Shown here one piece after another: positions 1,728-21,700 of a DNA stretch of 40,663 nucleotides. The notes under the pieces were generated by a model that ran no database searches, was not told the origin of the DNA, and was given only the letters and a program-made list of their open reading frames with translations. Location: IMG/VR virus record IMGVR_UViG_2802429245_000006; one strand, 5' to 3'. Each line of letters starts with the position of its first letter. Within the stretch, counting starts at the first letter, position 1. The DNA comes from a virus. Taxonomy: Duplodnaviria > Heunggongvirae > Uroviricota > Caudoviricetes. The translations under genes were made by a program, and so were the position numbers.

Positions 1728-1816
1728 ACTGAAGATTTTCCTGATATGCAGAGATGAGAAATGGGAAAGTGGTGTGGTGAAAGCACCTGGCCGGAGCAGA
1801 AGGTTATTCTGATTAT

Positions 1817-2185: not shown

Positions 2186-2234
2186 GATAAAATCCTTACA
2201 GAAAATCGGTGAATGATAGTTTAACGATGACGAG

Positions 2235-2882: not shown

Positions 2883-2900
2883 CAGAATCCCCTTTCTGAT

Positions 2901-3122: not shown

Positions 3123-3184
3123 AGTGGGATACCTCTGAAGACAGAAGATAAAAGTGAAAACAGGTGTGATGTGGTTGTGACGGG

Positions 3185-3661
3185 TTAAAGCAGACCATGT
3201 TCGGCAAAGGAGAAAACCTGGCTGCCACCGACTATCAGATGGTCCGGCACCCGGATATCCACCAGGCCCAGTGCCTGTACCAGACGTTCCGTGATAAGGC
3301 GGTCTGCCTTGCTGGGTGTGACTTCACCGGACGGGTGATTGTGTGCCAGCACCACAGCAGCGGCATTGTGATACAGGGCGCGTTTAATCACTTCCCGGGG
3401 ATGGACTTCCGTGCGGTTGATGGTGCCGGTGAAGAGGGTTTCACCGGCAATCAGCTGATTCTGGTTGTTCAGATACAGCACCCGGAACTCTTCACGCTCC
3501 AGTCCCGCCATGTTCAGAATCAGCCATTCTCGTGCCGCACGGGTGGAGGTGAAGGCCACGCCGGGTTCATGAAGATGGCGGTCCAGGGTTTTCAGGGCCC
3601 GTTGAATGAGGCTGAGCTCGCCGGGCGTCATCTCTCCGGGCAGAAAGGAAAGCTGTTGCAT
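3185..3661 (-). CDS. yeeS: RadC-like JAB/MPN-domain protein (YeeS/YfjY/YkfG family)
   Basis: From the ATG at 3661: MQQLSFLPGEMTPGELSLIQRALKTLDRHLHEPG... with the HNHPSG JAB motif. Confidence 0.85.
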   Translation of the reverse strand: MQQLSFLPGEMTPGELSLIQRALKTLDRHLHEPGVAFTSTRAAREWLILNMAGLEREEFRVLYLNNQNQLIAGETLFTGTINRTEVHPREVIKRALYHNAAAVVLAHNHPSGEVTPSKADRLITERLVQALGLVDIRVPDHLIVGGSQVFSFAEHGLL

Positions 3662-3676
3662 TGTACTTCTCTCCAT

Positions 3677-4150
3677 TCAGTCGATGATGCGCATAATGGC
3701 GCTGCATTCCGGATGCTGCAGGGCGTAATCCCGCAGCCGGTAATAATGGACCGTCATGGCATAACACTCCGTACGACAGGCATGATGACTGTACGTCATC
3801 AGACAGGCAGCAATGCCGGCAGCTTCCGGACTCATTTCAGCGCGGTTACCGTTCATGGCATTGAACAGTACCCATGTTTCGTCATCATCGTCATCCGGTT
3901 CGGGTGCTATAAATGCCCCGCCGTTGTTCAGGGTGTACAGATTCCAGATACCACCGCAGTAGTCTTCGCACAGACGGTCCATCCAGCCGAAGACACGGGG
4001 CTCCAGGGTCACCCACTGTGGAATGAGGCCAAAATGCTGCGGCCAGAAGCTGATGCGCTGTTCATCAGGGACTATGGTGGCAACCAGTTGTTGCAGGCCA
4101 GTCTCCGGTGCACAGGCCGAAGAGGTGGTGTTCTGAGACAATGTTTTCAT
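3677..4150 (-). CDS. klcA: KlcA/ArdB-type antirestriction protein (YfjX/YafX family)
   Basis: From the ATG at 4148-4150: MKTLSQNTTSS...FWPQHFGLIPQWVTLEPRVFGWMDRLCEDYCGGIWNLYTLNNGGAFIAPEPDDDDDETW..., characteristic of the family. Confidence 0.8.
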   Translation of the reverse strand: MKTLSQNTTSSACAPETGLQQLVATIVPDEQRISFWPQHFGLIPQWVTLEPRVFGWMDRLCEDYCGGIWNLYTLNNGGAFIAPEPDDDDDETWVLFNAMNGNRAEMSPEAAGIAACLMTYSHHACRTECYAMTVHYYRLRDYALQHPECSAIMRIID

Positions 4151-4243
4151 GTATGAAATCCTTGTAATGTGAATAAATGAGAGGGAGTAAAGGTCGGGAG
4201 CTGGCAACATCACGTTCATCACTGACCGTGAGACCCGGCAATA

Positions 4244-4489
4244 TCAGGGATGAATGATATTCGTCTGAAATTCCGGACAGCCGTACGCGTAACCGTTCCG
4301 GTCACAGACGGATGGCCAGATGCCATTGTCTGTACTCAGTCTGCACAGACTGAGTTCTCCGGGACGGTAAAGCAGACGGGTACACCAGGCGCACAGGTCA
4401 TCATCAGAAATGGAACGACACCCCAGCAGCGCCTCCGGGGCGTCGGGTGATTCTGGTACCTGAATCACGCCTTCAGAGACAGGCTGCAT
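4244..4489 (-). CDS. Small Cys-rich hypothetical protein (81 aa)
   Basis: ATG at 4487-4489 overlaps the stop of the upstream DUF932 gene (TGATG), suggesting translational coupling. No recognised family. Confidence 0.45.
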   Translation of the reverse strand: MQPVSEGVIQVPESPDAPEALLGCRSISDDDLCAWCTRLLYRPGELSLCRLSTDNGIWPSVCDRNGYAYGCPEFQTNIIHP

Positions 4490-5307
4490 CAGCGCATACT
4501 CTCCAGCAGCGTTTCTGCCATTACCCACAATGCGCGGTTGAGCTTAATATCGGTATCAATGCTGTGAATGGCACGGGTGTGGATACGTTTTCCTCTGGCA
4601 CTGCGACCGGAAATCCCGCCTTTCAGCATATTCTCCTGGATGGTCTGATAAGTACTCCACAGGTCCTTACCGTAATCCTCCCGGCGTCGTGGCGTCAGAA
4701 TGTCGGCGGTGGTGACGGGCTGATGTTCGTCACCATAACGGTAAGTCAGTGCCGCCTGTGCCAGCGCCTGGCGTGCCGGTGGCGGCAGGACCAGCGACTG
4801 CATGGCATCACGCTTTTCCTCAATCCGGTCAAAAACCCCCACCACTTCGTAAGCCCCTTCGATAACTTTCTCCACCACATTTCCCCGGTGTGGAACACGC
4901 ACTTCCCCCAGAGACTGACCGCAGACCAGGCCATTGGTACAAATGGCACGGAAATATCCGGGTAACATCTGGTAGCTGGATGAACCGTCATGGGAGTTGA
5001 GCAGAATAATTTCAGGCACATGCTGACCGGTTATCTGTCCGGCCCGCCGCAGGCGCAGCATGTGTTTTGTGTATCCCCGGCGGCCCGGGTCACGTACGCG
5101 GGTCTGGCAGGCAAAGAAGGGCTGAAAACCTTCCCGCTGCAGGCTTTCCAGCACGGTGATGGTGGGGATCCAGGTATAGTTCTCGCTTCTGGATGTGTGC
5201 TTATCTTCCCCGAATACGCTGGGGACGACCTGCATCAGTTCTTCACGAGTTAAGGGGCGGTCACGGCGTATCTGGTTCGCATAACCAAAACGACTGGCTA
5301 ATCGCAT
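4489..5307 (-). CDS. DUF932-family protein (YafZ-like)
   Basis: 272-aa translation MRLASRFGYANQIRRDRPLTREELMQVVPSVFGEDKHTSRSENYTWIPT... matches the YafZ family of CP4-type prophages. Confidence 0.8.
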   Translation of the reverse strand: MRLASRFGYANQIRRDRPLTREELMQVVPSVFGEDKHTSRSENYTWIPTITVLESLQREGFQPFFACQTRVRDPGRRGYTKHMLRLRRAGQITGQHVPEIILLNSHDGSSSYQMLPGYFRAICTNGLVCGQSLGEVRVPHRGNVVEKVIEGAYEVVGVFDRIEEKRDAMQSLVLPPPARQALAQAALTYRYGDEHQPVTTADILTPRRREDYGKDLWSTYQTIQENMLKGGISGRSARGKRIHTRAIHSIDTDIKLNRALWVMAETLLESMR

Positions 5308-5343
5308 GATTTATTCCTTATGAATGAGTTAGCGGTATAAATG

Positions 5344-5374
5344 AAAAAGCCGCGTCTCCCGGAGAAGACGCGGC
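5344..5374 (-). terminator. Intrinsic terminator downstream of the DUF905 gene
   Basis: Stem gccgcgtc/gacgcggc (5349-5356 / 5367-5374) followed on the minus strand by TTTTT (plus-strand 5344-5348). Confidence 0.5.
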
Positions 5375-5397
5375 CTGATGGGGGAAATGAATGACGT

Positions 5398-5622
5398 TTA
5401 TTGTCTGAGAAGCCCTTCACTGGCGAGCCGCGTATTAAGTTGTTTGCCGGCATCGGATTCAAAATTCCAGCACCGCCAGCGTAGCTGCCCTTCAGCATTA
5501 CGGATAACCAGCCGGAAATGCGTTCCCTGGTCATCTTCAGTAAACACATTGCGGTAAGCTGTTGTGACGGCAACCGCCTGTTCGCGTGAGAAAGGGCCTT
5601 CGGCAATAAACGTGATGTACAA
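5398..5622 (-). CDS. DUF905-family small protein (YkfF-like)
   Basis: 74-aa ORF with ...[49 protein letters not shown]..., resembling the DUF905 proteins of CP4-type islands. Confidence 0.65.
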
Positions 5623-5650
5623 CCCGGCATATCTGTTGCTCCCTGAAAGT

Positions 5651-5678
5651 AAAAAGCCCCGGTCATGATGACCGGGGC
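5651..5678 (-). terminator. Intrinsic terminator downstream of flu
   Basis: Near-perfect palindrome gccccggtcat/atgaccggggc (5656-5678) followed on the minus strand by TTTTT (plus-strand 5651-5655). Confidence 0.55.
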
Positions 5679-5700
5679 CTGAAGGGGAGTGACCTGATTA

Positions 5701-8550
5701 TCAGAAAGTCACATTCAGCGTGGCCTGACCGTTATAACCTTCAGCGCTGCTGCCGCTGACGCTGTGGGCATAACCGGCCTGAACGCCCAGGGTGATATTT
5801 TCCCGGACACGGGCTTCCAGTCCGGCCTGCAGGTCCAGTGACGTGCCATTCTGGGACGGTGAGAACGTCATGTTACTGCCGGCGGCGGCTGTACCCATGC
5901 TCATGTCACCCCGGGAGCTGAAAGTGCGGATAACAGAAGGCTGTACCCACCAGTTCACCGGCAGTTCACTCACACGGTGCTTTGCACTGTCGCGCAGAGT
6001 GTCACGGGATGAGGTGCCTTCGCCAAAGGTCATATCGTTGTGGCTGCCCAGACGGAAACCGGCACGCACATGTTGTGCACTGCCATGCCCGAACTTCACA
6101 TAACCGGCGTTATCCTGGCCGTCATCCAGGGAGAGTCCCTGCCAGGTGTACTGCAGTTGTGGCTCCAGCATCAGGTTGTCAGTGATACTGAAGGGCAGAC
6201 CGGTTTCCAGTGAGCCCAGCCAGCCCCAGCCCCGGGCGCGGAAGTCGTTATTGTCCGATGACGCTTTCATGCTGTGGCAGGTTCCCTGTGCCACAATGTC
6301 AGCCCACAGGCCGGAGGACGTGTGTACCAGATTCAGATATCCGCCCAGACTGCCGGCATCATCCCGGACCGTGCCGGCGCGGGAGCCGTCATCATCCTTA
6401 ACATCAACGGAAGAATGGCCTGCAGCACCATATACCCCTGTCGTCAGAGACATACCGGCCACCTCTGTTCTGAGCAGGTCACCCTCCAGACGGACGAAGC
6501 CATAGCTGCCGCTGCTTTCCGGCGTGGCCCCACGGGCAATACCACCGTTGTTATCGTGCCCGAGATGACCGCCCTGAATGCTGAGACGGACGCTGTTATT
6601 TTCACCGTTTACACCGGTCTGATGGCTGCGGGAGCCTGCCAGAATCCGGTCATAGTCCATTGCCTGTGTCAGCATGGATGTATACAGGGGGACTTCAGCA
6701 CGATAAGCATTTTCACTGCGCAGGTACCAGTCTTCATCGCTGTCACGGTTCAGGGTGTAGTTAAAGGCGCCGGCCTGAAGCGGGCGACTCAGGGCAAACG
6801 CACCTTCTTCTGTGGTGGCGCCATTCTGTGCATCCACAACCCGGATACCCTGTCCGGAGGTTGCCACCCCGAGGTTACTGTTTCCGACATTTGTAAACGC
6901 AAGCCAGGTTTTGCCGGTTGCCTGACCACCATTAATCACCAGCTGGTCAGAGGTATTGCTGCCATCAAGGCGAACACGCATATTGATGGTGCCACCCTGA
7001 CCGGTGAGGTTACTGGTTGTCAGTTTATGGAACGTTACCGGGGCGTTGCCTTTTGCAACAGCACGGCTCAGTACGGCGTCCGGTGTTGTCTGATTATCAA
7101 AGTAAATCTCCCCTGCGTTAACAATATCGCCGGTACTGACCACATCACCATTCAGTACCATGCTGGCGCCTTTACTGAGCTGTGTTCTGCCACTCAGACT
7201 TCCCCCGGCAGCCAGCGTCAGTGTTCCACGATATCCGACAGTGGTGTTACCGGCCTGTCCCCCGGCATTAACCGTAAAGCTGCCGCCATTTTCCAGTAGC
7301 AGGCCGCTGGCCTGACCGGATATGCCATCAATACTGAACTTACCGCTGGCATTGGTCCCCTCAACAGTGGCACCACTGTCTGCAATCAGGGCACCACCGG
7401 ATGTCATGGTGACACCTGTCGCCTTACCACCGGCAGACACTGCCAGGGTACCGCCGTCATCCACCAGGGTATTCTGTGCTGAATGGTTCTCCAGTACATC
7501 CAGACGACCGCCATTTTCCAGAACGACGTTATCTGCCATGCCATTTCCCACGGAGAAATGCCCCAGGCAGTTTGTGCCGGTGACAGTTGCAGCAGTACTG
7601 GTAACCAGTGCACCGCCCGTGTTCTGGGTGACTGCAGTGGCTTCCCCGCCGGCATGTACCCTCAGTTCACCGTTCTGATTTATGGTGGTGTTACCAACAG
7701 CACCACCTGCCTTAACAACCTGCCAGCCCCCCTCGTTAATTACCGTGTTCAGCGCAAGTCCGTCCTTGTGCACATACTGGTAACCGCCATTCAGTGTGGT
7801 ATTCAGGGCCCTTCCGTGTACCGACTGGTCACCACCTGCGTAAATGAGAGTGTCACGGGCTATCCCGGAAAATAAGATAATCTGCCGTCCATTTTTGTTG
7901 ATGGTGGTGGATTCTGCTGTTCCCTGGACCTTCTGCCCCGTGTACGAGTTGTCAGAATCCGGGCCGCCTTCTGCGCCGGTGTTGATGATGGTTCCTGTTG
8001 CCAGCCCGCCACTTTTAACGCTCTGGTAACCGTCGCGGTTGATAATTGTACCGGTGGCAACCCCGCCCTCATGAACCCACTGCTCGCCTCTGTTATTCAG
8101 CGTGGTGTTCACCGCCAGCCCGTTCAGGCTCTGTCCCCCGCCGTCACGAATAACCGTATCACTGGCTGTTCCCCCCTCCAGCACGACCTGACGACCATTT
8201 GTGGTGACAGTGGTGTTTCCGGCTATCCCGCCATTCTGTATCCATTGCCCACCGGTGTTTTCTTCACTGTCCGGCCCCAGTTCCAGCCCGGTACTGATGG
8301 TCATTCCGTTGGCCGTACCGAAGACAATCTGGTTGTCGTGATTTGTCAGTGTTCCGCCGCTCACGGTTTCTCCAGCCTGTACAACCGTGTCAGCAGCCAG
8401 TGCCGGGACTGAAGTGGCGGTGGCAAGAGACAGCGCCAGCGCCACGCCAGTACGTTTCCCCCGTGAGCGGGCCAGTTCGGAAGCCACCACCAGGGTGCCC
8501 GTAATGTGATTCCATACCAGCCTGTAGCTGGTGTTCAGATGTCGTTTCAT
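5701..8550 (-). CDS. flu: Antigen 43 (Ag43) self-associating autotransporter adhesin
   Basis: From the ATG at 8548-8550: MKRHLNTSYRLVWNHITGTLVVASELARSRGKRTGVALALSLA... with a repetitive passenger and the conserved beta-barrel C-terminus ...QATLNVTF; 949 aa. The ORF-track frame extends 25 codons upstream. Confidence 0.95.
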   Translation of the reverse strand: MKRHLNTSYRLVWNHITGTLVVASELARSRGKRTGVALALSLATATSVPALAADTVVQAGETVSGGTLTNHDNQIVFGTANGMTISTGLELGPDSEENTGGQWIQNGGIAGNTTVTTNGRQVVLEGGTASDTVIRDGGGQSLNGLAVNTTLNNRGEQWVHEGGVATGTIINRDGYQSVKSGGLATGTIINTGAEGGPDSDNSYTGQKVQGTAESTTINKNGRQIILFSGIARDTLIYAGGDQSVHGRALNTTLNGGYQYVHKDGLALNTVINEGGWQVVKAGGAVGNTTINQNGELRVHAGGEATAVTQNTGGALVTSTAATVTGTNCLGHFSVGNGMADNVVLENGGRLDVLENHSAQNTLVDDGGTLAVSAGGKATGVTMTSGGALIADSGATVEGTNASGKFSIDGISGQASGLLLENGGSFTVNAGGQAGNTTVGYRGTLTLAAGGSLSGRTQLSKGASMVLNGDVVSTGDIVNAGEIYFDNQTTPDAVLSRAVAKGNAPVTFHKLTTSNLTGQGGTINMRVRLDGSNTSDQLVINGGQATGKTWLAFTNVGNSNLGVATSGQGIRVVDAQNGATTEEGAFALSRPLQAGAFNYTLNRDSDEDWYLRSENAYRAEVPLYTSMLTQAMDYDRILAGSRSHQTGVNGENNSVRLSIQGGHLGHDNNGGIARGATPESSGSYGFVRLEGDLLRTEVAGMSLTTGVYGAAGHSSVDVKDDDGSRAGTVRDDAGSLGGYLNLVHTSSGLWADIVAQGTCHSMKASSDNNDFRARGWGWLGSLETGLPFSITDNLMLEPQLQYTWQGLSLDDGQDNAGYVKFGHGSAQHVRAGFRLGSHNDMTFGEGTSSRDTLRDSAKHRVSELPVNWWVQPSVIRTFSSRGDMSMGTAAAGSNMTFSPSQNGTSLDLQAGLEARVRENITLGVQAGYAHSVSGSSAEGYNGQATLNVTF

Positions 8551-8767
8551 CAGCTTTTCCTTACAGAGGGTGAATAAAAAAGCCGGTACCCACAAAAGTG
8601 GATACCGGCAGGTACAAAACAGCATGGTCAGATAAAGTGGTTTTTCCCGGACATAAATGCTTCCCCTCTCTCATCCGCCAGAGAAGTATCAGTCCGTTGT
8701 GTGCAATTCCGTTCTGCATGATGAAGAGATTCAGCTGCCTTTTCGCAGACCATTAACCACTATAAAC

Positions 8768-8922: not shown

Positions 8923-9795
8923 TCAGAAGAAAATCCAGTTCCATACAGCGCGGGCAACAGAGACCACCGAGTCACGGACGGCACGCAGAACCGTGCGTGC
9001 AACAGAGGCAATACAGACGCTCTCCGCCGTGTCAAATATCCGGTCCACCGCACCGGTAAACTGTTCACGGGCCTGAGACCGGACAGATTCCGTGCGCAGT
9101 TCGTCCTGCAGGCGGGTCATCAGGGGACTGGCGGCATGGTCGGGAAGCGCTGTCATGAGCGCACTGACCAGCGTATCCAGTTCCCAGCCGGTGCGGGCCG
9201 ATACGGCAACAACAGGATGTACGGGCCGGAACAGACGGAATACCACCTCCGTTTTTTCGCGAATGTTCTGTGCCTGTGCGGGAGAAGGCTGAATGCCGGC
9301 CATATCCCATTCATGGCAGGGTTCGGTTTTGTCGGCCTGTGTCACCACAAACAGCACCTGCTGATGTCCCCGGTGCAGGATGTGTCGCCAGAAATACTCA
9401 TCCACAGACAGGGCACGGTCATCGGCTTTAATCAGCCACAGTACCAGGTCAAGTTCAGGCAGAATGTTACGGTACAGGGCTTCATACTCTGCATCCCTGT
9501 CCCGGCTCTCGCCCACCCCGGGCAGGTCAGTGATAATCATGCTGTGACCGTGGCCACTCAGACGGAAGCGCCGCACTTCCCGGGTGCCGGCGTGAACATC
9601 ACTGACCGGGGTGACCTCCCCCTGAAACAGCGCATTACAGAGTGAAGATTTACCGGCCCCGCTTTTCCCCATAATGCCAATCACGGGTTCGTGGCTGGTG
9701 AGTTTACGCAGATGTTCCAGGATGTGACGGGAAAGCGAATAAGGCAGGGAGGAGAGCGGTTTTTCAATTGCCTCAATGGCATCAGACGGATTCAT
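8923..9795 (-). CDS. yeeP: YeeP/YkfA/YfjP-family GTPase (50S ribosome-binding GTPase fold)
   Basis: From the ATG at 9793-9795: MNPSDAIEAIEKPL...; P-loop GIMGKSGAGKSS and DLPG motif. Appears intact at 290 aa. Confidence 0.85.
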   Translation of the reverse strand: MNPSDAIEAIEKPLSSLPYSLSRHILEHLRKLTSHEPVIGIMGKSGAGKSSLCNALFQGEVTPVSDVHAGTREVRRFRLSGHGHSMIITDLPGVGESRDRDAEYEALYRNILPELDLVLWLIKADDRALSVDEYFWRHILHRGHQQVLFVVTQADKTEPCHEWDMAGIQPSPAQAQNIREKTEVVFRLFRPVHPVVAVSARTGWELDTLVSALMTALPDHAASPLMTRLQDELRTESVRSQAREQFTGAVDRIFDTAESVCIASVARTVLRAVRDSVVSVARAVWNWIFF

Positions 9796-10125
9796 ATATG
9801 TATTCCCGGTGAAAAAAGACAAAACCCCGCGCACCGGAAAGGTGGCGGGGGATTCACGGAGATAATATCTGTCTGAAATTATTTAGGATGCAGGTATCTT
9901 CAGATAATCGCACCTCCAGAATTTTATTCTTAATAGTTGAATAGTGGTATTTGGTTTCCCTGAGAGAATATAAAGGTGAATCATGCTGTATTGAGTTTGA
10001 TTCTATTTGTACTGAGACAGGTATCTTCATGATTATAATCAAAAGTCGGGTGGATTGGTCTGGCGCTCATTATTTTTTCGAATAAACTCACTAATTATTG
10101 TAACAATCCCAAAGGAGATGATTTT

Positions 10126-10308
10126 ATGTATAATTGTGGTGAATCATATTCAGAATACGACATATCATTATCTGACGATGAAAACTATAACGATGACTAT
10201 TATCGTGAACGCCCGTGCCCGGGAGAAGTTTTCGGCTATGATAATACTGAGGATAATGATGAGGCGGCATCTGATTATGCATTAAAAATAAATGAAAACT
10301 CTGATTAA
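10126..10308 (+). CDS. Small highly acidic protein (60 aa), function unknown
   Basis: ATG at 10126 preceded by AAAGGAG at good spacing; about one third D/E plus many Tyr; lies in an AT-rich ORF-poor tract. Confidence 0.4.
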   Translation: MYNCGESYSEYDISLSDDENYNDDYYRERPCPGEVFGYDNTEDNDEAASDYALKINENSD

Positions 10309-10527
10309 GACGGGGGTAACTGATAATAAGACAATCAATGACAGATATTAATGAATGAACATAATCAGGCGCTCAATACTTGATTTAATCTGGGCGCCTG
10401 ATTAAAATCCGAGGTGACATATAATAATTTTCATCAAAATAGTTTTTATGTACTAACTAAGCAGGATTTAAACCTCTATTTCTGGGCATTTGTTATCACT
10501 TAATCCATTACTGCTCCTCCTTCAGCA

Positions 10528-11112
10528 TATGTCGTATCCGTTGAAGGATTTACGCATATCGGTAATGCCGGCACCCAGCCAGATGCGGGTACCTGACGGG
10601 AGTGAGATCATTGTCCCCTCCCGCTCAGTTCACGGAGCAACACTGTGAGCAGATCTGGTGAAGGATTTTCCAGCGTCATGTTACCGTGACGGAACTCCAC
10701 CTTGCAGGAGCTGGCACTGACAGTAGTCTGGGTGGATAAAGACGGAGTAAGAGCAGCCACCGGTTCTTGCGGCTCATCCGGCGTTATCTCCACAGGTAAT
10801 AATTCAACGCCAGTGTCAGAAGAGGTTGTTACCGGAAGACGCCGCGATATACGCCCTTCGTTTTGCCAAAGTCTGAGCCATTTGAAAATAACATTATCAT
10901 TGACGCCATTTTCTCGAGCAATCTGGGCCACACAAGCACCGGGTTGTGATGCCAGTTCAACCATACGAAGTTTGAATTCATTCGAATACTTTTTACGAGG
11001 TTCTTTTCGCCAGTCCTGTAATTCCATACTTAGATGTCCGTCTGTGTCAGATGGGCGTCTAAGTTACCAATTCTTGTCTAATGGCTACATACGGCGGTCG
11101 GTTTACGCTTAC
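10528..11112 (-). mobile_element. IS66-family remnant (terminal repeat, tnpA, 5' stub of tnpB)
   Basis: Minus-strand terminus GTAAGCGTAAACC ends at 11112. tnpA is followed by a tnpB start (MISLPSGTRIW...) overlapping the tnpA stop in ATGA at 10608-10611. tnpB homology ends near 10528. Confidence 0.65.
10608..11027 (-). CDS. tnpA: IS66-family accessory protein TnpA
   Basis: 139-aa ORF with ...YSNEFKLRMVELASQPGACVAQIARENGVNDNVIFKWLRLWQNEG..., the TnpA pattern recalled from IS66-family elements. Confidence 0.65.
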   Translation of the reverse strand: MELQDWRKEPRKKYSNEFKLRMVELASQPGACVAQIARENGVNDNVIFKWLRLWQNEGRISRRLPVTTSSDTGVELLPVEITPDEPQEPVAALTPSLSTQTTVSASSCKVEFRHGNMTLENPSPDLLTVLLRELSGRGQ

Positions 11113-11865
11113 CTTGTTCTGGAAAAGCTGGAGATGAAATGGTCTCCAGAGCAAATATCAGGATGGTTAAGGCGAACAAAACCACGTCAAAAAACGCTGC
11201 GAATATCACCTGAGACAATTTATAAAACGCTGTACTTTCGTAGCCGTGAAGCGCTACACCACCTGAATATACAGCATCTGCGACGGTCGCATAGCCTTCG
11301 CCATGGCAGGCGTCATACCCGCAAAGGCGAAAGAGGTACGATTAACATAGTGAACGGAACACCAATTCACGAACGTTCCCGAAATATCGATAACAGACGC
11401 TCTCTGGGGCATTGGGAGGGCGATTTAGTCTCAGGTACAAAAAACTCTCATATAGCCACACTTGTAGACCGAAAATCACGTTATACGATCATCCTTAGAC
11501 TCAGGGGCAAAGATTCTGTCTCAGTAAATCAGGCTCTTACCGACAAATTCCTGAGTTTACCGTCAGAACTCAGAAAATCACTGACATGGGACAGAGGAAT
11601 GGAACTGGCCAGACATCTAGAATTTACTGTCAGCACCGGCGTTAAAGTTTACTTCTGCGATCCTCAGAGTCCTTGGCAGCGGGGAACAAATGAGAACACA
11701 AATGGGCTAATTCGGCAGTACTTTCCTAAAAAGACATGTCTTGCCCAATATACTCAACATGAACTAGATCTGGTTGCTGCTCAGCTAAACAACAGACCGA
11801 GAAAGACACTGAAGTTCAAAACACCGAAAGAGATAATTGAAAGGGGTGTTGCATTGACAGATTGA
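11113..11865 (+). pseudogene. insI: IS30 transposase InsI, N-terminally truncated
   Basis: Translation ...LVLEKLEMKWSPEQISGWLRRTKPRQKTLRISPETIYKTLYF...[15 protein letters not shown] is the C-terminal two thirds of the IS30 transposase. The 387-aa ORF-track frame is a chimeric read-through. Confidence 0.85.
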
Positions 11866-11872
11866 ATCTACA
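11113..11872 (+). mobile_element. IS30 3' fragment, 5'-truncated by the IS66-family insertion
   Basis: Sequence from cttgttctggaaaagctggagatgaaatgg to the terminal ...attgacagattgaatctaca matches the IS30 right half and terminal repeat. Confidence 0.85.
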
Positions 11873-12207
11873 GTAGCCTTTTTTAATATTTCATTCTCCA
11901 TTTCAATGCGTTGTAGCTTTTTCCTCAGCTCACGTATTTCGATTTGTTCTGGTGTTATCGGAGAGGCTTTTGGTGTTTTGCCCTGACGCTCATCACGCAG
12001 TTGTTTGACCCATCTTGTCATTGTGGAAAGGCCAACATCCATAGCTTTGGCGGCATCTGCCACCGTGTAGTTCTGGTCAACAACCAGTTGAGCGGATTCG
12101 CGTTTAAACTCTGCGCTGAAATTTCTTTTTTTCATTGGAGCACCTGTGTTGTTCTGAGGTGAGCATATCACCTCTGTTCAGGTGGCCAAATTCAGTGTGC
12201 CACTTCA
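11873..12207 (-). mobile_element. IS911 5' fragment (left IR plus orfA codons 1-88), interrupted by IS30
   Basis: Minus-strand end TGAAGTGGCACACTGAATTTGGCCACCTGAACAGAGGTGATATGCTCACC... and orf[47 protein letters not shown]... stop matching IS911 after ...EILKKAT at the IS30 junction (11872/11873). Confidence 0.85.
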
Positions 12208-12541
12208 CTCGAACCCCAAGACCGGCAATGGAATCGCTTTGTAGAGCTAGAGTTAGTGCCGCATCCTCGTATTGAGCACAGCGAAGCGATTGAGCTAGAC
12301 TATGGCATGACGGGGGGCGCTCTAAAGGTTGAGATTAGAGCGGCCTCGGCAGGCTACTTACTCAGACAATGGAATGTGGATTGTTCTACCAACGCCACAC
12401 TCCAAGATGGTGGAGCTCAATTGTACTTAAAGAACAGAGCAACACTTTATGGAGTTAAAAACATCATGCTAGCTCCAGGGATTGAAAAAGAACTTGGTAA
12501 CTAATGCACAAAAACGAACTTGGCGCAGGGAATAAATTTTG

Positions 12542-15500
12542 ATGAAAATAATCGATAACCTTAACAACCTATTAGGTGACGAGCTTCAACAGACGCTGAC
12601 ACCGAATACAAAGTTAAAGATTGCTGCGTCTTGCTTTTCTATTTATGCGTATGAGGCTCTCAAAAAGGAGTTAGCGAAGATAGACTCACTTGAGTTCATC
12701 TTCACATCACCTACTTTTGTCGCAGATGAAGTTACCGATAAATTCAAAAAAGAAAAACGAGAGTTCTTTATTCCCAAAGCAGGGCGTGAACGCAGCCTTT
12801 ACGGAACTGACTTTGAAATACAGTTAAAGAACAAGCTCACTCAAAAGGCGATCGCCAAAGAGTGTGCAAACTGGATCAGAAAGAAAGCGACATTCAAATC
12901 AAACAAAACTGATTCTCCAATGCAGTCGTTTGTTGTGACGGAAGCACCTAGACAGCAAACAGAGACAATGAGTGCAGTTTTTGCTCCGGTTAGCGGGTTT
13001 ACGGCGGTTGATCTAGGGTATCAGCGAGGAAATGCTATTTCGAATTTTGTGCAAAAAATCGATGAGCCAAATTTCACAGCCCAGTACTTACAGTTATTCG
13101 ACCAAATTTGGAAAGACCCTGCGAAGCTTCAAGATGTTACTAAAACAATTTGCGAGCATATAGAGTCTGTCTACCAGGAAAACTCGCCTGAGAAAGTCTA
13201 TTTCATTATTTTGTATAACATTTTTAATGAGTTCCTTGATGATATTACAGAGGATGTATTACCAAATGATCGAACCGGCTATCAGGACACCTTGATTTGG
13301 AACAAGTTATTCAACTACCAAAAAGATGCCGCGACTGGGATTATCAATAAGTTAGAGACCTATAACGGCTGCATTCTGGCTGATAGTGTTGGTCTTGGTA
13401 AAACATTTACAGCGTTAGCTGTCATCAAGTATTACGAGCTCAGGAACAAGTCCGTACTTCTACTGTGTCCGAAAAAATTGGCAGATAACTGGCTCAACTT
13501 TAATCGAAACTTAAAGACAAATATCTTTGCTAAAGACCGTTTTAGTTACGATGTTTTGTGTCACACAGATTTGAGCCGAATCTCTGGCGAATCCTTCGGT
13601 ACTCCGTTGAATAGAATAAACTGGGGTAACTATGACTTGGTCGTCATTGATGAGTCGCATAACTTTAGAAATAACGATGCAGTGAAAGATCGAGAAACCC
13701 GATATCAGAAACTGATGAATAAAGTTATTCGGGCTGGCGTGAAAACCAAAGTCCTGATGCTATCAGCGACACCAGTGAATAATAGATTTACTGACCTGAG
13801 AAACCAGCTTGCGTTAGCTTATGAAGGCGAGTCGAGCAATCTCACAAAGCATCTTAAAACCACAAAAAGCGTAGAACAGATCTTCAACCAAGCACAAGCC
13901 GCATTTAACGCTTGGTCCAAACTCGACCCAGAGACGCGAACAGCTAAAGCCATACTCGATGCCTTAGATTTCGACTTTTTTGAACTGCTTGATAGCGTCA
14001 CTATCGCTCGCTCACGAAAGCACATCACAACATTCTACGACACAACAGATATTGGCCATTTCCCTGAACGTAACAAGCCAATCTCGTTTCATTGTCCGCT
14101 TACTACTCGTTCGGATGTAGTTAGCCTGAATGAGATCTTTGAACAGCTTAAGCTACTCAAACTATCTGTTTATGCGCCAGTGAGTTATATCCTCCCGAGT
14201 AGATTGAAGAAATATGAGGAGATGTATGACACGGAAGTTGAAGGCGGAAAAGGTAAGTTAAAGCAAAGCGACCGTGAAAAAAGTTTGGTTGCATTGATGA
14301 CAACGAACCTCCTAAAGCGTCTTGAGAGCTCCGTATACTCGTTCAGAAGCACCTTGCAATCTCTCCATGATAACCATGTTCGTGTTCTAGGTATTATCGA
14401 CGAATTCTATAAGCGAGACGGGCAAACCGAAGTGAGCAGTCTCGTTGAAGCGCTAGAGTCTATTGAAGCAGATGAAGACGATATGCCTTCTTATCACGAT
14501 ATGGAAATCGGTAACAAAATCAAAATTAAGCTAATGGATATGGATCTTCCATCCTGGCAGCAGGATTTAGATGGCGATTTGGAGCTGATCAAAGGGTTAC
14601 TAGATTCTGTTAGCAAAATTAAGCCAGAAGAAGATGCTAAGTTGCAGCATCTGAAATCACATATTGCTGCAAAAATAAATAATCCGATAAATCCTGGAAA
14701 CCGGAAAATCATCGTGTTCACGGCGTTTGCTGACACCGCTCAGTATCTGTACGAGCAGTTGTCACCTGTGATGTTAAGCGAGCATAGAATCCATACTGCG
14801 ATGATCACTGGTGGTGCCAGTTTACCTAAGACCACCTTAAAAACCGGACGAAAAGGTTACGACACACAAGAAGTGCTCACCTTGTTTTCTCCAGTTTCCA
14901 AATCGAAAGCCAGTGTATTACCTGACGAACCCGCTGAAATCGATTTGTTGATTGCTACAGACTGTATCTCTGAAGGGCAGAACTTACAGGATTGCGATTA
15001 CTTAATTAACTTTGATATTCATTGGAATCCAGTTCGGATTGTTCAGCGCTTTGGGCGTGTTGACCGTATTGGCTCGGCGAATAAATGTATTCAGTTAGTT
15101 AACTACTGGCCTGATATATCGCTGGATGAGTACATCAACTTAAAAGAACGTGTTGAAAGTCGAATGACGATTGTTGACGTAACAGCGACCGGTGATGACA
15201 ACGTTCTAAGTTGTCAAGCGAATGATGTGTCGTACCGTAAAGAGCAGTTAAAGAAACTACAAGAAGAAGTCATCGAGCTTGAAGATTTAAAAACGGGGGT
15301 TTCTATCACCGATCTAGGTCTAAACGAATTTCGAATGGACCTGCTAAATCTAATGAAACTCTACGGCGAACCAAGAAATGCACCAAGCGGCATGCATGCG
15401 GTGGTTGAGGCTAAGCCAGAATTAGGGTTATTGCCTGGCGTGGTGTTTGCGCTGAAAAACGTTAATAACAGTATCGATAGAGATCTGCAAAACAGGCTCC

Positions 15501-15874
15501 ACCCTTATTACCTTGTCTATGTATCGAATGAAGGGGACATCGTCGCTAATCATTTTGAGGTAAAGAGACTATTAGATTTAATCCGAAGTAGCTGTAAAGG
15601 TCAAACAGCACCGCTCAGTGAGATTTGTGCTTTATTTAATCGCTTAACGCAAGACGGTCGAGATATGCAGTGTTACTCTCACCTTCTAACAGATGCCATA
15701 AAAAGCATGGTTGAAGTTAAGGAAGAAAAAGATATTGATAGTTTGTTCAATGGTGGCGCTACCTCAGCTTTAGTGAATACATTTGCCGGGCTTGATGACT
15801 TTGAATTGCTGGCATTTATTGTGATCCAGCAAAAGCACCTGATGGAAAATAGTGCTCAGGATGAGGTTAGCTAG
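12542..15874 (+). CDS. SNF2-family helicase/ATPase with an unassigned ~250-aa N-terminal domain
   Basis: Motif I ADSVGLGKT, motif II VVIDESHNFRN, motif III LMLSATPVNN, C-terminal helicase motifs ...TDCISEGQNLQ... and QRFGRVDRIGS; 1110 aa from the ATG at 12542. Low-GC coding sequence. Confidence 0.85.
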   Translation: MKIIDNLNNLLGDELQQTLTPNTKLKIAASCFSIYAYEALKKELAKIDSLEFIFTSPTFVADEVTDKFKKEKREFFIPKAGRERSLYGTDFEIQLKNKLTQKAIAKECANWIRKKATFKSNKTDSPMQSFVVTEAPRQQTETMSAVFAPVSGFTAVDLGYQRGNAISNFVQKIDEPNFTAQYLQLFDQIWKDPAKLQDVTKTICEHIESVYQENSPEKVYFIILYNIFNEFLDDITEDVLPNDRTGYQDTLIWNKLFNYQKDAATGIINKLETYNGCILADSVGLGKTFTALAVIKYYELRNKSVLLLCPKKLADNWLNFNRNLKTNIFAKDRFSYDVLCHTDLSRISGESFGTPLNRINWGNYDLVVIDESHNFRNNDAVKDRETRYQKLMNKVIRAGVKTKVLMLSATPVNNRFTDLRNQLALAYEGESSNLTKHLKTTKSVEQIFNQAQAAFNAWSKLDPETRTAKAILDALDFDFFELLDSVTIARSRKHITTFYDTTDIGHFPERNKPISFHCPLTTRSDVVSLNEIFEQLKLLKLSVYAPVSYILPSRLKKYEEMYDTEVEGGKGKLKQSDREKSLVALMTTNLLKRLESSVYSFRSTLQSLHDNHVRVLGIIDEFYKRDGQTEVSSLVEALESIEADEDDMPSYHDMEIGNKIKIKLMDMDLPSWQQDLDGDLELIKGLLDSVSKIKPEEDAKLQHLKSHIAAKINNPINPGNRKIIVFTAFADTAQYLYEQLSPVMLSEHRIHTAMITGGASLPKTTLKTGRKGYDTQEVLTLFSPVSKSKASVLPDEPAEIDLLIATDCISEGQNLQDCDYLINFDIHWNPVRIVQRFGRVDRIGSANKCIQLVNYWPDISLDEYINLKERVESRMTIVDVTATGDDNVLSCQANDVSYRKEQLKKLQEEVIELEDLKTGVSITDLGLNEFRMDLLNLMKLYGEPRNAPSGMHAVVEAKPELGLLPGVVFALKNVNNSIDRDLQNRLHPYYLVYVSNEGDIVANHFEVKRLLDLIRSSCKGQTAPLSEICALFNRLTQDGRDMQCYSHLLTDAIKSMVEVKEEKDIDSLFNGGATSALVNTFAGLDDFELLAFIVIQQKHLMENSAQDEVS

Positions 15875-15877
15875 TTT

Positions 15878-16564
15878 ATGAACTCACCTTGGATATTTCC
15901 TGACAACGCAAAGTTCGGTCGAGTCGTGCCTAAGAACAAAATATATGAGCACAGCGCGGCAAGCACTGGGTTGAAGTCACTTTTTGTAGAGCAAGTAGAG
16001 CAAATCCTTTGGGCTTACAAGCTATCGCCTAGCACGCTGAATATTCCTCAAACCAGTGAGGTCAGTGAAATACAGGTTTTCAGTGTGAAGCTTAAAGGTG
16101 ACTCGATAGACGACAGCGTACTAAAAGCCATTGATTTGGCGATACCTTTTCCCATTCTATTTGAGGTATGGGAAGCTCGCGGTGAGCAAGGCCACTACGT
16201 TGCTTGCTATAAGCGTAAGGCAGAAAATGATCAGTCAAAATGGTTTTGTAGCCGCTATTTACGTTCAGAAACCTTCTATTCAAGTGATTCATTAGCAGTG
16301 ACTTCAGAAGTTTTGGGTTTGCCTACCGCTATCGATATGGCGGAGCTGTATCAAAAGCTTCTTACTCGCTTGTTACCCATACCCCAACGAGCCGCTGAGA
16401 GTATAGAAGAGGCTATTCAACGCCTGGAGGCAATTCAGGCATTGGAAAAGCAAATCTCGCAATATAAGAAGAAGGTTCATGCCGAGAAACAGTTTAACCG
16501 CAAGGTTGAGCTCAATAAGCAGTTAAAGAATTTAAGGTGCGAGCTTCAAGAGTTACTCGCATAA
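15878..16564 (+). CDS. Small accessory protein (DUF4391-like, with C-terminal coiled coil)
   Basis: 228-aa ORF starting 3 nt after the helicase stop. Family assignment is from recalled gene neighbourhoods, not a verified match. Confidence 0.55.
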   Translation: MNSPWIFPDNAKFGRVVPKNKIYEHSAASTGLKSLFVEQVEQILWAYKLSPSTLNIPQTSEVSEIQVFSVKLKGDSIDDSVLKAIDLAIPFPILFEVWEARGEQGHYVACYKRKAENDQSKWFCSRYLRSETFYSSDSLAVTSEVLGLPTAIDMAELYQKLLTRLLPIPQRAAESIEEAIQRLEAIQALEKQISQYKKKVHAEKQFNRKVELNKQLKNLRCELQELLA

Positions 16565-16637
16565 AGAATAAACAATTTCAATCAGTTAAATAGTGCCACA
16601 TGCTTTTTATGCAAGGCATCACGCAAAAGGTGAACAC

Positions 16638-18629
16638 ATGGACAAATTAAAGATGCACAGCCCCGACATGACGCAGCAAAACATAGAGAAAATTCAGGCG
16701 TTGTTTCCGAACTGTGTGACGGAATCAAGAGGAGCTAACGGAGAGCTAAAGTTAGTCATTGATTTTGACCAACTTAAACAAGAGCTATCAAATTCAATCG
16801 TTGAAGGCCCGCAAGAGCGCTATCAGCTGAACTGGCCCGGTAAGCGAGAAGCACTACTAACAGCGAATGCACCTATTGCCAAAACCTTAAGACCTTGTCG
16901 AGAAGAAAGTGTCAATTTTGACACCACTAAAAACCTCTTTATTGAAGGCGATAACCTTGATGCATTGAAACTGCTACAAGAGGCATATATTGGAAAAGTC
17001 AAATTAATATATATTGATCCACCTTATAACACCGGTAATGACTTTATATATGAAGACGATTTTTCTGAAAATGCAGAGAGCTTCTTAATAAAGTCCAACC
17101 AGAAAGATAGTGATGGTAATAAATTAGTAGCGAATACAGAAGCTAATGGCAGATTTCACTCGGATTGGCTAAGCATGATGTACTCACGTTTGAAATTGGC
17201 TCGTAATCTACTAAGTGATGAAGGAGCTGTGATTATCTCAATTGATGAGAATGAACACAGCAACATAGTGAAATTAGGTGGTCTTATATTTGGCGATGAA
17301 AACTTTTGTGGCGAAATAGTCTGGAAAAATAGTAGTAAAAATGACCAGAAATATGTCTCAATACAACACGAATACCTTGTTATATTTGTTAAATCAAAGC
17401 AAAACAATAAGGGGGATTGGGTTGAGAAAAAAGAAGGCCTAGACCAAATTTATCAAGCGTTTGATGGTTTTAAACGCAAACATGGCAATGACTGGGATGC
17501 AATACATGCAGATGCGCTTGAATGGTATAGGAGTTTCCCTGCATCCAATCCAATTTCATCAAGTAAACATTATAGCTGGATGGACGAGCGCGGTGTATAT
17601 TTCCCAGATAATATTTCAGGCCCAAACGATGGTCAGTATGTTTATGACGTCATCCATCCTGTGACTAACAAACCATGCAAAATGCCTTCTACAGGATGGC
17701 GCTATCCAGAATCAACGTTAATTGAAAGAATAGCTGATAATCGAGTGCACTTTGGAAAGGATCATAAAACTGTTCCAAACAATAAAACGTATCTAAAAGA
17801 TACTGAATATCAGAGCCTTACGAGCATGCGCTTCGTTGATGGTCGCAGCGCTTCTAAAAGGCTGCAAACCCTTTTCGGTGATAAAGTTTTTACAAACCCT
17901 AAAGATGAAATTTTATTAAAAGATTTATTTAAAGCAATTGGTGTATCAGAAAAAGATATAGTCCTTGATTTCTTTGCAGGTTCTGCATCGACGATACATG
18001 CTGTTTTTGAACTCAATAAAGAAACTGGCAGTAATTGTTCGTGTATCCTAGTGCAGCTTCCAGAAGATCTGAAAGAAATGTTAAAAACGGCTAAAGGTTC
18101 TGCTAAGAAAGTCACGCAGAACGCTATCAATTATTTGAAAAATAAAGGCCTACCACAAACAATTAGTGAAATTGCAAAAGAACGTATTCGACTTTCGGGG
18201 CAAAAGTATACCGAAGATTTCGATATTGGATTCCGAGTTCTCAAAGTAGATACCTCCAACATGGCGGATGTGTACTACTCTCCAGATCAAGTTACTCAGG
18301 GTTCGTTAGACTTATTGGTAGATAATATTAAAGCAGACCGCACTGATGAAGATTTACTTTTCCAGGTTCTACTTGATTGGGGCGTCGATTTAACCTTGCC
18401 AATTAGAAAAGAAACGATTCAAGGTAAATCGGTATTCTTTGTCGATGATGATGCACTGGTGGCCTGTTTTGATCTGCGCATAAATGAAGCTTTGATTAAA
18501 GAGTTAGCCACAAAAGAGCCACTTCGCGTAGTGTTCCGTGATGACGGCTTTGAGTCTGATGCAGTAAAAATCAATGCTGAGCAGATTTTCAAGCAAGTGT
18601 CGCCACATACTGAAGTTAAAGCGATATAA
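16638..18629 (+). CDS. mod: Type III Mod-like N6-adenine DNA methyltransferase (beta class)
   Basis: Catalytic motif [12 protein letters not shown] precedes AdoMet motif [12 protein letters not shown], the order typical of Type III Mod. ATG at 16638 with AAGGTG upstream; the ORF-track frame begins 15 codons earlier. Confidence 0.85.
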
Positions 18630-18638
18630 GGAGGGATC

Positions 18639-18728
18639 ATGACAAATTTTACCGGATTAAAATTTGCACACAGCCTTGTCGCAGACAAGGTGTGCCCGAA
18701 GTGTTGCGTACATGGAGGTGCGCAATGA
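18639..18728 (+). CDS. Possible 29-aa leader peptide (uORF) coupled to res
   Basis: ATG at 18639 is 4 nt after AGGAGG; translation [29 protein letters not shown]; its TGA overlaps the res ATG (ATGA at 18725-18728). Confidence 0.3.
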
Positions 18729-21700
18729 AACTTAAGTTCAAAGTCCAACCTTATCAAACTGTTGCCGTAGAGTCGGTTGTTGACTGCTTTGCGGGGCAAC
18801 CTAACACATCCGGCGTTACCTACCGAATCGACCCTGGCGTTGCCAAGGATAAGTTTGGCAATGCTGGTTGGGATATGAGCGACCAAGACGGTTTTAAAAA
18901 TGCAGAACTCGCGATCACTGAATCGCAGTTATTGCAAAATATTCATGGTGTTCAAAGTAGACAGAACCTCCCTGTTTCAGAAGCGTTAGTCAGCAATGCT
19001 AGCGCTAAGATTAATCTCGATGTTGAAATGGAAACCGGTACTGGTAAGACATATTGCTACATCAAAACCATCTTTGAGATGAATAAGCGCTATGGCTGGA
19101 GCAAATTTATTATCGTTGTGCCTAGCATCGCCATTCGTGAAGGTGTTTACAAGTCGCTGCAAATCACAGGTGAGCATTTTGCTCAGAATTACGACGGTAA
19201 AAAGGCCCGGTTCTTTATCTATAACTCGAAACAATTGCACCAGTTAGAGAGTTTTTCTTCTGACAGTGGCATCAATGTGATGGTCATTAATATTCAAGCC
19301 TTTAATGCTTCAGGAAAAGACAATAGACGTATTTATGAAGAGTTGGATGACTTTCAGTCTAGGCGTCCTATTGATGTTATTAGTGCAAACCGTCCAATCC
19401 TGATTTTGGATGAGCCACAAAAGATGGAAGGCAAGAAGACATTAGATGCCTTAGCCAAATTCAAACCACTGATGGTACTTCGATATTCGGCCACGCATAA
19501 GACAACACATAATAAAGTGCATCGCCTGGATGCGCTTGACGCTTATAACAATAAGCTGGTTAAGAAAATTGCCGTTCGTGGTATTTCAGTAAAAGGCTTG
19601 GCGGGAACGACAGCCTATCTATATTTGGAATCCATCGAGATCTCGAAAAAAATGCCAGTGGCTCGCATTGAGATCGAAGTTAAACAACAAAATGGTATTA
19701 AACGCATACCCAAGAAGGTTACTAAGGGCGATAATCTTTTTGATCTTAGCAATGGTCTGGACCAGTACCGTGACTTTGTGGTTACTGATGTCAACGCGAT
19801 TAACGACACGGTTGAATTCAAAAATGGCCATGTTTTAACCACGGGCGATGCGACGGGAGACGTGACCGAAGAGACCATTCGCCGAATACAGATCCGCGAG
19901 ACAATTAAAGCGCACCTTGAAAAAGAAAAAACACTTTTTAACCAGGGTATAAAGGTTCTCTCTCTCTTTTTTATTGACGAAGTCGCAAAGTATAGGGACT
20001 ACTCTCAAGCCGATGAAAAAGGTGATTATGCTCGCGTTTTTGAAGAAGAGTACTCCTTGCTTGTACAGGAATATCTTGATGAGTTGACTCTTTTACCGAG
20101 TGAGCAGACTGATGCCTATAAAGCCTATCTATCGGCCATTGAAGGCTCCAGAACGCATAATGGTTACTTCTCAATTGATAAGAAATCAAATCGTCTTCAG
20201 AACCCCGGCTTTAAAGTCCGTGGTGAAGATGCCGGGCTATCAGACGATGTAGATGCTTATGATTTGATTCTAAAAGATAAGGAAAAGTTACTTTCGTTTG
20301 AAGAGCCTACTCGGTTTATCTTTTCACATTCGGCCTTGCGCGAGGGGTGGGATAATCCAAACGTATTTGTCATGTGTATGTTAAAACACAGCGACAACAC
20401 TATCTCTCGTCGTCAAGAAGTTGGGCGTGGTTTACGTCTGGCCGTCAATAAACATGGTGACAGACAAGACCATCCGGCAACTGTGCATGAAATTAATGTT
20501 TTGTCGGTGATTGCAAGTGAAAGCTATAAAGACTTTGTCACGAATCTGCAAAAAGAGATCAGCGAGTCTCTCTCAGCGAGACCTAGAAAAGCAGATGAAG
20601 CTTATTTTACGGGTAAGACAATTACAACAGCTGATGGACCTGTAGAAGTAACACCTGTCATGGCTAAGCAAATTTATAAGTATTTGCTTAAAAATGATTA
20701 TACCAATGACGTTGACGATTCAATTGCGCCATCATTCCACCAGGCTAAGGCTAGTGGACAGTTAGCGCCAATGCCTGCTGAGTTAGAGCCTTACCGCGAG
20801 CAAATATTGACCCTGATTGACGGTGTTTATAGTGAAGCGCAATTGCCAGGTGTTGGTGATGATCGTAAACCTAAAAACAATCCGTTGAATGCTAATTTTG
20901 ATAAGAAAGAGTTTCAGGAGCTTTGGCACAAAATCAATCGCAAAGCGGTTTATAAGGTTGATTTTGATTCGTCTGAGTTGATTAAAAATTGTATTCGGGT
21001 ACTCAATAAAGAGCTTAAGGTAACGCCTCTTCAGTACACGATTCAAGATGGTGTTCAATTGGATGGCATTACCGACGAACAACTCAAAGCTGGACAAAGT
21101 TTCAAGGTGAAAAACACTGAGACTGAAACTCATCAATCGAGCATTCATTCTGCTGTTCGTTATGACTTGGTTGGTAAGTTGGCTGAAAATTGTGTGCTGA
21201 CTCGCAAAACAGTCGCCGAAATACTGATGGGTATAGAACCTGTAGTATTTGCACAATTTAAGCAGAACCCTGAGCATTTTCTCGCTGAGGCTTCACGCCT
21301 TGTGAAAGAGCAAAAGGCATCTGTGATCATCGAGAAGCTATCATATGATCCAACGAACGAATCTTATGATGTTGATATATTCACGGCAGAGCAAAAAATC
21401 ACTGATATGACAAAAGCCGTTAGTGGCGTTAATAAGCATATTTATGATTATGTTGTCGTTGATTCACAAGGCATTGAACGGGACTTTGTTACCGAGCTTG
21501 ATACAAGCAAAGAAGTCGTGGTTTATGCAAAACTGCCTCGTGGTTTTCTGATACCGACGCCTGTTGGCGACTACAACCCTGATTGGGCGATTTCTTTCAA
21601 AGAAGGAAGTGTTAAACACATTTACTTTATTGCAGAGACTAAAGGAACGATGTCTTCGCTTGAATTGCGTGGCATAGAAGATCGCAAGATTGAATGTGCT

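Follow-up and report, generated by a model that had tools for sequence, protein, structure and literature searches.

A scar of IS66-family, IS30, and IS911 fragments beside a type III restriction-modification cargo in a CP4-type island

Results

Setting and composition of the scar

The window (the whole stretch of 40,663 nucleotides analyzed here) carries a CP4-type island adjoining tRNA-Ile, mug, and rpoD, as judged from the PGAP annotation of the near-identical locus in GPEC996 and from SCEC020022. Just past a backbone GTPase gene and a conserved 60-aa ORF, positions 10537 to 12207 consist of three abutting insertion sequence (IS) fragments, which belong to the IS66 family, IS30, and IS911. 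The scar is an inert composite of three broken ISs that contains no complete element and encodes no working transposase. The sequence matches of its fragments were far beyond chance (E = 0). The initial annotation had described the fragments as physically nested, and alignment agreed with it exactly on both inner junctions (11112/11113 and 11872/11873) and on the right edge, the IS911 end at 12207; the family names were likewise borne out by nucleotide identity to PGAP-labelled copies and by profile scores. The left edge had been set at 10528 and has to be moved by 9 nt, to 10536/10537, as homology to intact IS66 elements starts at 10537. Two ORFs in this region were rejected as genes: the ORF at 10702–11865 (plus strand, 387 aa) is a read-through chimera running from antisense tnpA into the 3' part of IS30, and the ORF at 11785–12171 (minus strand, 128 aa) is one running from orfA into antisense IS30.

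The scar is ordinary, each of its pieces being already annotated in public genomes. The same 1.9-kb composite was found in 30 of 5426 complete E. coli genomes at 99.6–100% identity, and the PGAP annotation of those 30 genomes shows the same four pseudogene pieces. This recurrence bears on the possibility that repeated ISs were collapsed or mis-joined during assembly. IS-rich regions misassemble easily, and the window matches no complete RefSeq E. coli genome end to end; however, since the 30 genomes were sequenced independently and come from several countries and hosts, we consider an artefact very improbable indeed. GPEC996 was the closest genome around the scar, but it departs from the window in the backbone, carries an extra IS1, and is only 92–98% identical over parts of the cargo.

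The three IS fragments

The IS66-family stub lies on the minus strand at 10537–11112 and retains the terminal repeat, an intact tnpA, and 25 codons of tnpB. Its left end (11028–11112, minus strand) carries the GTAAGCG terminal repeat of the family, GTAAGCGTAAACCGACC..., which ends at 11112. An intact IS66-family element of 2526 bp in strain M160133, flanked by the 8-bp duplication AAATCACC, has exactly the same terminal 30 nt and is 98.1% identical to the stub as a whole; identity of the stub to a copy labelled ISEc23 by PGAP is 91%. The tnpA gene (10608–11027, minus strand) is an intact 139-aa ORF (PGAP accession WP_001685882.1) that scored 82.5 bits against the NCBIfam model for IS66 TnpA, NF047595 (cut-off 74), and also matched Pfam HTH_Tnp_1; SCEC020022 and LR-72 have a frameshift in this gene. 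The start of tnpB at 10611 overlaps the end of tnpA (ATGA), and the first 25 codons are kept (10537–10611, minus strand; translation MISLPSGTRIWLGAGITDMRKSFNG), three fewer than the approximately 28 codons initially annotated. Of these residues, 23 match the N-terminus of intact TnpB. The alignment begins at 10537, the window having A at 10536 where intact IS66 copies have G, and PGAP annotates a TnpB pseudogene over the same 75 nt in GPEC996. Neither tnpC nor the right end of the element is present in the scar. The GTAAGCG repeat, tnpA, the overlapping tnpB start, and the intact relative with its 8-bp duplication all identify the stub as a member of the IS66 family.

The middle fragment (11113–11872, plus strand) corresponds to nt 462–1221 of IS30 (1221 bp) and aligned without gaps to K-12 IS30A with two mismatches (99.7% identity). 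It contains the last 250 transposase codons at 11113–11865 and the right terminal repeat (IRR), ...GATTGAATCTACA, which ends at 11872; the translated part scored 249 bits against NF033563 (cut-off 80) and matched Pfam rve. Identity, IRR, and the DDE transposase profile thus all assign it to IS30. Nucleotides 1–461 of IS30 are missing from the scar. A 2-bp AC duplication surrounds IS30 in pMAR2 and K-12; in the window the left half of IS30 is missing. The putative target of the IS66-family element at IS30 nt 461/462 would read CTTGTTCT. The symmetry of the IS30 target site in IS911, judged by eye, was unimpressive (5 of 11 positions).

The third fragment (11873–12207, minus strand) is IS911 nt 1–335, comprising the left terminal repeat at 12207, a 72-nt leader, and part of orfA. 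As initially annotated, orfA is cut at codon 88: it starts at 12135 and keeps 87 codons plus 2 nt (12135–11873). The resulting 87-aa N-terminus scored 54 bits with Pfam HTH_Tnp_1 (cut-off 24). With neither the frameshift site nor orfB nor the right end present, a single end of the element remains, and no IS911 3' sequence (the insO-type half) was detected anywhere in 9800–12600. The fragment matches the IS911 5' parts of pMAR2 and pCUVM3.1 at all 335 positions; K-12 IS911A is 91% identical. The assignment to IS911 is based on this nucleotide identity and on the left terminal repeat, TGAAGTGGCACACTG..., which we take to be the canonical IS911 terminal repeat; the rest of the matching copies in pMAR2 and H229 is labelled "IS3-like element IS911 family" by PGAP.

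The defence cargo and its right-hand boundary

The first cargo gene, which is open from the IS911 end, is a 98-codon 3' fragment of a WYL/BrxR-type regulator gene (12208–12504, plus strand). PGAP names this stretch a WYL domain protein or a BrxR family regulator in plasmid homologues; the fragment itself had no profile match of its own in Pfam, PADLOC, and NCBIfam-type scans. The defence cargo at 12539–21802 (plus strand) encodes an HKD+Snf2 helicase, a DUF4391 protein, a type III methyltransferase, and a type III restriction endonuclease, according to PADLOC (C3a139, 1e-121; MTase_III, 1e-219; REase_III, E = 0) and to the PGAP names of the same genes in GPEC996. It is 96–99% identical to the plasmids pCUVM3.1 and p1919D62-2 up to position 21989.

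The right-hand IS boundary of the cargo (21978–23248, plus strand) consists of a 41-nt IS3-family end (21978–22018), whose matches fall under IS3-family transposase annotations, followed by a complete ISEc14-like element of the IS3 family (22019–23248, plus strand; ISEc14 family by PGAP) with 24-nt inverted repeats at 22019–22042 and 23225–23248. A zorD fragment lies to its right. The cargo and its flanks do not form a composite transposon. The two flanks differ, one being the IS911 stub with its left repeat facing the cargo and the other the ISEc14-like element, and p1919D62-2 carries the cargo without either flanking IS and pCUVM3.1 without the right-hand one.

Comparison with known arrangements

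The insN/insI1/insO arrangement of K-12, in which IS30A interrupts IS911A, has been described (PMC9333248), and the initial annotation had likened the IS911–IS30 junction of the window to it. The likeness holds for the insertion site. In CP4-6 of K-12, IS30A sits in orfA of IS911A immediately behind nt 335, flanked by an AC duplication, and leaves a 335-bp 5' stub, as in the window; the same AC dinucleotide (IS911 nt 334–335) was used, the junction sequence GGCTAC|IS30 is common to both, and both loci are CP4-type islands in which the ISs lie just past a GTPase gene (ykfA family). However, alignment showed that IS30 has the opposite orientation: IRR faces IS911 nt 335 in the window, whereas IRL does so in K-12. 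Furthermore, the IS911 isoforms differ by 9%, and CP4-6 has a complete IS30 and insO, whereas the window retains IS30 nt 462–1221 alone, without the insO-type half. CP4-6 also has no IS66 stub and sits at thrW, whereas islands of the window type are at tRNA-Ile. The likeness to K-12 therefore concerns the site and extends neither to orientation nor to descent.

Plasmid pMAR2 of EPEC E2348/69 carries the window type in unbroken form, with the same junction, orientation, and 335-bp IS911 stub. There, IS30 is complete and lies inside IS911 between 2-bp AC repeats, part of the IS911 3' half is kept past IS30 (429 nt aligned), and there is no IS66 stub. The other side of the scar has its counterparts in the O157:H7 islands (F8797, EDL933) and in ter-carrying islands, which share the backbone (GTPase gene and 60-aa ORF) at 95–96% identity and have the identical breakpoint between tnpB and the backbone, with tnpA kept. 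Their IS66 end adjoins an IS3-family fragment (O157) or vWA/ter genes, whereas in the window it adjoins IS30. Their stub is only 89–91% identical to that of the window, the O157 stub being nearest to ISEc23.

An IS66-family insertion into IS30 was found in uk_P46212, which carries a complete ISEc23 within IS30 in the same orientation as in the window and 2 bp from the site used there. Both IS30 halves are present, together with a 7–8-bp duplication. This ISEc23 is a 91% isoform that meets IS30 at nt 464 instead of 462, and its neighbourhood (a sat island and IS600) is different; the comparison identifies the insertion as an independent event.

Frequencies of the junctions

Junctions were counted with 200-nt junction-spanning queries against 5426 complete E. 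coli genomes. The junction between tnpB and the backbone (10536/10537) was present in 781 genomes at 88–100% identity; to its right, three different neighbours occur at the IS66 end. About 720 of these genomes have a neighbour other than that of the window, namely the IS3-family fragment of the O157:H7-type islands (561 genomes) or the vWA/ter operon (157 genomes). Because this junction is common to varied neighbours, the outermost truncation is the oldest event and not the last. The initial annotation had implied that the IS66 layer is the youngest; its junction with the backbone is instead the one that is shared most widely and has diverged most.

This result weighs on the simplest history that could be read from the nested fragments, in which IS911 inserted beside the cargo, IS30 into IS911, and IS66 into IS30, before a single deletion from tnpB to the backbone stripped away the remainder of IS66 together with the left side of IS30 and the right side of IS911. 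The fragments are indeed physically nested with both inner junctions exactly at IS termini, and uk_P46212 demonstrates, with both halves present, an IS66-family insertion at almost the same place in IS30. Nevertheless, a breakpoint found in 781 genomes, about 720 of them with another neighbour at the IS66 end, cannot be a late and private event of this locus.

The IS911(335)–IS30 junction was frequent in both orientations: the IRR type of the window was found in 1210 genomes and the IRL type of K-12 in 1032, the latter type in two IS911 isoforms. IS30 has therefore inserted at the AC dinucleotide of IS911 repeatedly, which fits its known preference for specific hot spots (PMC9333248). The IS66-end–IS30 junction was much rarer (39 genomes); about 32 have the exact junction at nt 462 (100% identity), and three other matches are of the uk_P46212 type, at nt 464, 2 bp away. 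None of the genomes searched had an intact IS66 element at IS30 nt 461/462 flanked by the two halves of IS30.

The use of one IS911 site in both orientations, and the coincidence of each variable boundary with an IS terminus, might also be explained by the transposases themselves, if deletions or inversions adjacent to IS ends, or the targeting of inverted repeats and dimer chemistry of IS30, had given rise to the junctions at the left ends of IS66 and IS911. IS30 makes junctions between inverted repeats that lead to deletions and inversions and has a dual target specificity (PMC9333248), which counts in favour of this explanation, and it would account for breakpoints at IS termini and for the inverted IS30 of pCUVM3.1 relative to the window. 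On the other hand, the IS66 and IS911 stubs are one-ended and have no transposase gene, and the IS30 sequence flanking the IS66 end resembles an ordinary insertion site.

Mosaic structure of the IS66 stub

The IS66 stub is, as read from alignments, a mosaic with a breakpoint near 10655. Nine of its 11 mismatches to the intact M160133 copy, the one intact reference used in the test, cluster in 10566–10653, and none of 300 permutations was as extreme. On the left of the breakpoint, 10537–10655 matches the stub carried by strain 25-06685 at 95.8% identity and the intact copy at 92.4%; since backbone identity to 25-06685 is 96.3%, this segment is at backbone level. On the right, 10656–11112 is 99.6% identical to the intact copy compared with 89.4% to the 25-06685 stub and 88–91% to other stubs. 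Two intact IS66 isoforms compared with each other had no similar clustering of differences, as read from the table of variable sites rather than computed.

The mosaic most likely reflects homologous recombination of a resident stub with an intact IS66 copy located within an IS30. Alternatively, the interior of the stub may have been gene-converted while its flank stayed in place, which would yield the same mosaic. A mosaic stub also speaks against serial insertion at this locus followed by a single deletion, and the identity steps within the stub and at about 9800 are signatures of homologous exchange rather than of transposase activity.

Probable cargo exchange at the IS911 end

SCEC020022 and LR-72 have the same scar (99.6–99.8% identity), followed at the position equivalent to 12207/12208 by a type I restriction-modification (RM) system. 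This junction between the IS911 end and type I RM genes occurs in 35 genomes, including all listed genomes with the scar except GPEC996. In the window and GPEC996, the IS911 end adjoins a type III RM cassette that plasmids carry as well, and the exact junction with the truncated regulator gene (brxR') was found only in GPEC996, pCUVM3.1, and the CPww7 plasmid. The comparison of the locus in related strains thus recovered the same scar with different flanking cargo. A lineage with the identical scar and other cargo indicates that IS911 was not simply inserted beside the present cargo here, and taken with the preceding evidence it leaves the in situ succession of insertions unlikely. Likewise, the presence of the identical IS911-end–brxR' junction on plasmids means that this junction was inherited and not made at the locus, and on the whole of the evidence, rearrangement by transposases has a rather low probability.

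Near-identity of the window to the type I RM lineage is confined to 9800–12207, and the IS30 part is identical to that lineage. In the IS911 stub, the window has the plasmid allele at the one SNP (12053 G), and it is on this single SNP that the placement of a crossover within IS911 is based. In pCUVM3.1, IS30 is complete, has the K-12 orientation, and is inverted relative to the window, so that the homology it shares with the scar is the 335-bp IS911 stub alone. The initial annotation had proposed that the defence operon sits in a recombination hotspot, and DNA right of the IS911 end does vary among strains with an identical scar; it is the combination of these cargo-side findings that upholds the idea. 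As far as these alignments go, the IS stubs of the scar are likely to be the crossover substrates for cargo exchange. The regulator gene is truncated also in the IS-free plasmid copies, and any repression exerted by its product has probably been lost. In the IS-free plasmid p1919D62-2, the cargo boundary falls within 3 nt of the IS911 end, a coincidence that the recombination model leaves unexplained.

Discussion

We suggest that the scar was, on balance, built by recombination between IS copies rather than by three insertions and one deletion on the spot. The history would start with an island backbone (GTPase gene and 60-aa ORF) that has long carried an IS66 stub cut in tnpB at 10536/10537, as the islands with other neighbours show. 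Elsewhere, IS30 has entered IS911 at the AC dinucleotide (nt 334–335) recurrently and in either orientation, as is seen on other replicons, the IRR-facing orientation being the one relevant here. An ISEc23-like IS66-family element may then have entered such an IS30 at nt 461/462. From the mosaicism of the stub, we infer that a crossover near 10655 between this element and the resident stub would have joined the backbone, the stub, IS30 (462–1221), and IS911 (335–1), without carrying over the left portion of IS30 or the right portion of IS911. In a second exchange, the 335-bp IS911 stub could have served as the homology through which the type I RM cargo of the sister lineage was replaced by the cassette comprising the IS911 end, brxR', and the type III RM genes, a cassette that plasmids also carry.

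By itself, the scar serves no function; it is neither a gene nor a regulator. An Rfam scan of 9500–13000 gave no family at the gathering score. A promoter and terminator scan of 10200–12700 found four promoter-like sites compared with 3.8 expected and no terminator, and there was no promoter-like site between the IS911 end and the helicase gene; the scan thus offers no evidence that the scar drives or insulates the operon. The scar can instead be understood as portable homology that would both mark and promote the exchange of cargo.

Degenerate pile-ups of ISs at the borders of variable regions are common in E. coli islands, and the K-12 map has shown the IS911–IS30 pair for decades. What the exact junctions add is a marker. 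They define an island lineage, represented by 30 complete genomes, and indicate that in the window the type III RM/helicase cassette took the place of a type I RM system, and that the IS911 junction of the cassette is common to pig-associated plasmids. They also carry a caution: at hot spots, similar-looking IS-in-IS junctions such as IS30 in IS911 and IS66 in IS30 come about independently, and their orientation and position at the base level should therefore be checked before they are called identical by descent.

IS30 was found at one IS911 dinucleotide in both orientations and in at least two isoforms, and IS66-family elements have entered IS30 within 2 bp and in the same orientation at least twice. 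On this basis, we tentatively raise the possibility, which we hold to be a minor one, that nested IS scars are convergent and modular, with their stubs serving as adapters for the exchange of whole defence cassettes between CP4-type islands and plasmids through homologous recombination. If this were true, dead IS ends, namely the 576-bp IS66 stub (781 genomes) and the 335-bp IS911 stub, would together constitute a cassette-exchange system.

The IS scar and its island

In the window, the leftmost piece of the IS scar is an IS66-family stub (10537-11112), homologues of which occur in the comparison loci L005 and L006. A stub with an identical tnpB breakpoint is a conserved landmark of CP4-type islands and is found in 781 of the 5426 complete E. 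coli genomes, those of O157:H7 among them. The tnpA ORF is intact in the window, in GPEC996, in one O157:H7 island and in strain 25-06685, these copies having an identity of only 87-91%; the tnpA copies of SCEC020022 and LR-72 carry a frameshift.

Left of the scar lies an ORF of 974 aa (5701-8625, minus strand), which is absent from GPEC996 and whose position is taken by an Ag43/Cah autotransporter gene in related islands. Over 7400-8400, the identity to SCEC020022 falls to 65-85%, which indicates that the island backbone is itself mosaic.

The defence cargo

First in the cargo is the 3' part, 98 codons long, of a gene for a WYL/BrxR-type regulator (12208-12504, plus strand), the reading frame of which is open from the IS911 end onward. 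In p1919D62-2, an IS-free plasmid, the homology boundary lies within 3 nt of the point where cargo and IS911 end meet (L011 13990-14010); the sequences compared are TCACTGAACCCC and TCACTCGAACCCC.

The four-gene cassette (12539-21802) encodes an HKD+Snf2 helicase, a DUF4391 protein, and a type III methyltransferase and restriction endonuclease; other E. coli strains carry it on plasmids. In its central stretch (17186-18226), the methyltransferase gene has an identity of only 84-88% to the other copies or does not align, and the flanks of this stretch are 96-99% identical, a pattern that resembles an exchange of the target-recognition region.

At the right edge of the cargo, a second IS scar (21978-23500) consists of a 41-nt IS3-family end, a complete ISEc14-like element with 24-nt inverted repeats (22019-22042 and 23225-23248), and, from 23249, a zorD fragment, apparently the remnant of a former Zorya system. 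In GPEC996, the ISEc14-like element contains an additional IS1.

Insertion sites in IS911 and IS30

IS30 occupies one and the same AC dinucleotide of IS911 in either orientation (1210 versus 1032 genomes) and in two IS911 isoforms that are 9% apart. Junctions at this site lie at 11872/11873 in the window and at L003 8541/8542, L010 15765/15766 and L012 3600/3601 in comparison loci. Plasmid pCUVM3.1 shares the IS911::brxR' junction with the window, but its IS30 has the opposite orientation.

Two sister genomes show additional IS nesting: the IS30 end and the IS911 stub of LR-72 have an ISEc22 element between them (L009 7859-10323), and in Res13-Lact-PEB01-20 an ISEc23 element lies outside a complete IS30, 34 bp away (L008 7101-7134).

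IS30 was itself hit by the IS66-family element at nt 462 in the window (11112/11113), and in uk_P46212 ISEc23 is inserted at nt 464 (L007 4569-7100). These insertions are independent events, 2 bp apart and in identical orientation, which suggests that IS30 contains a favoured target.
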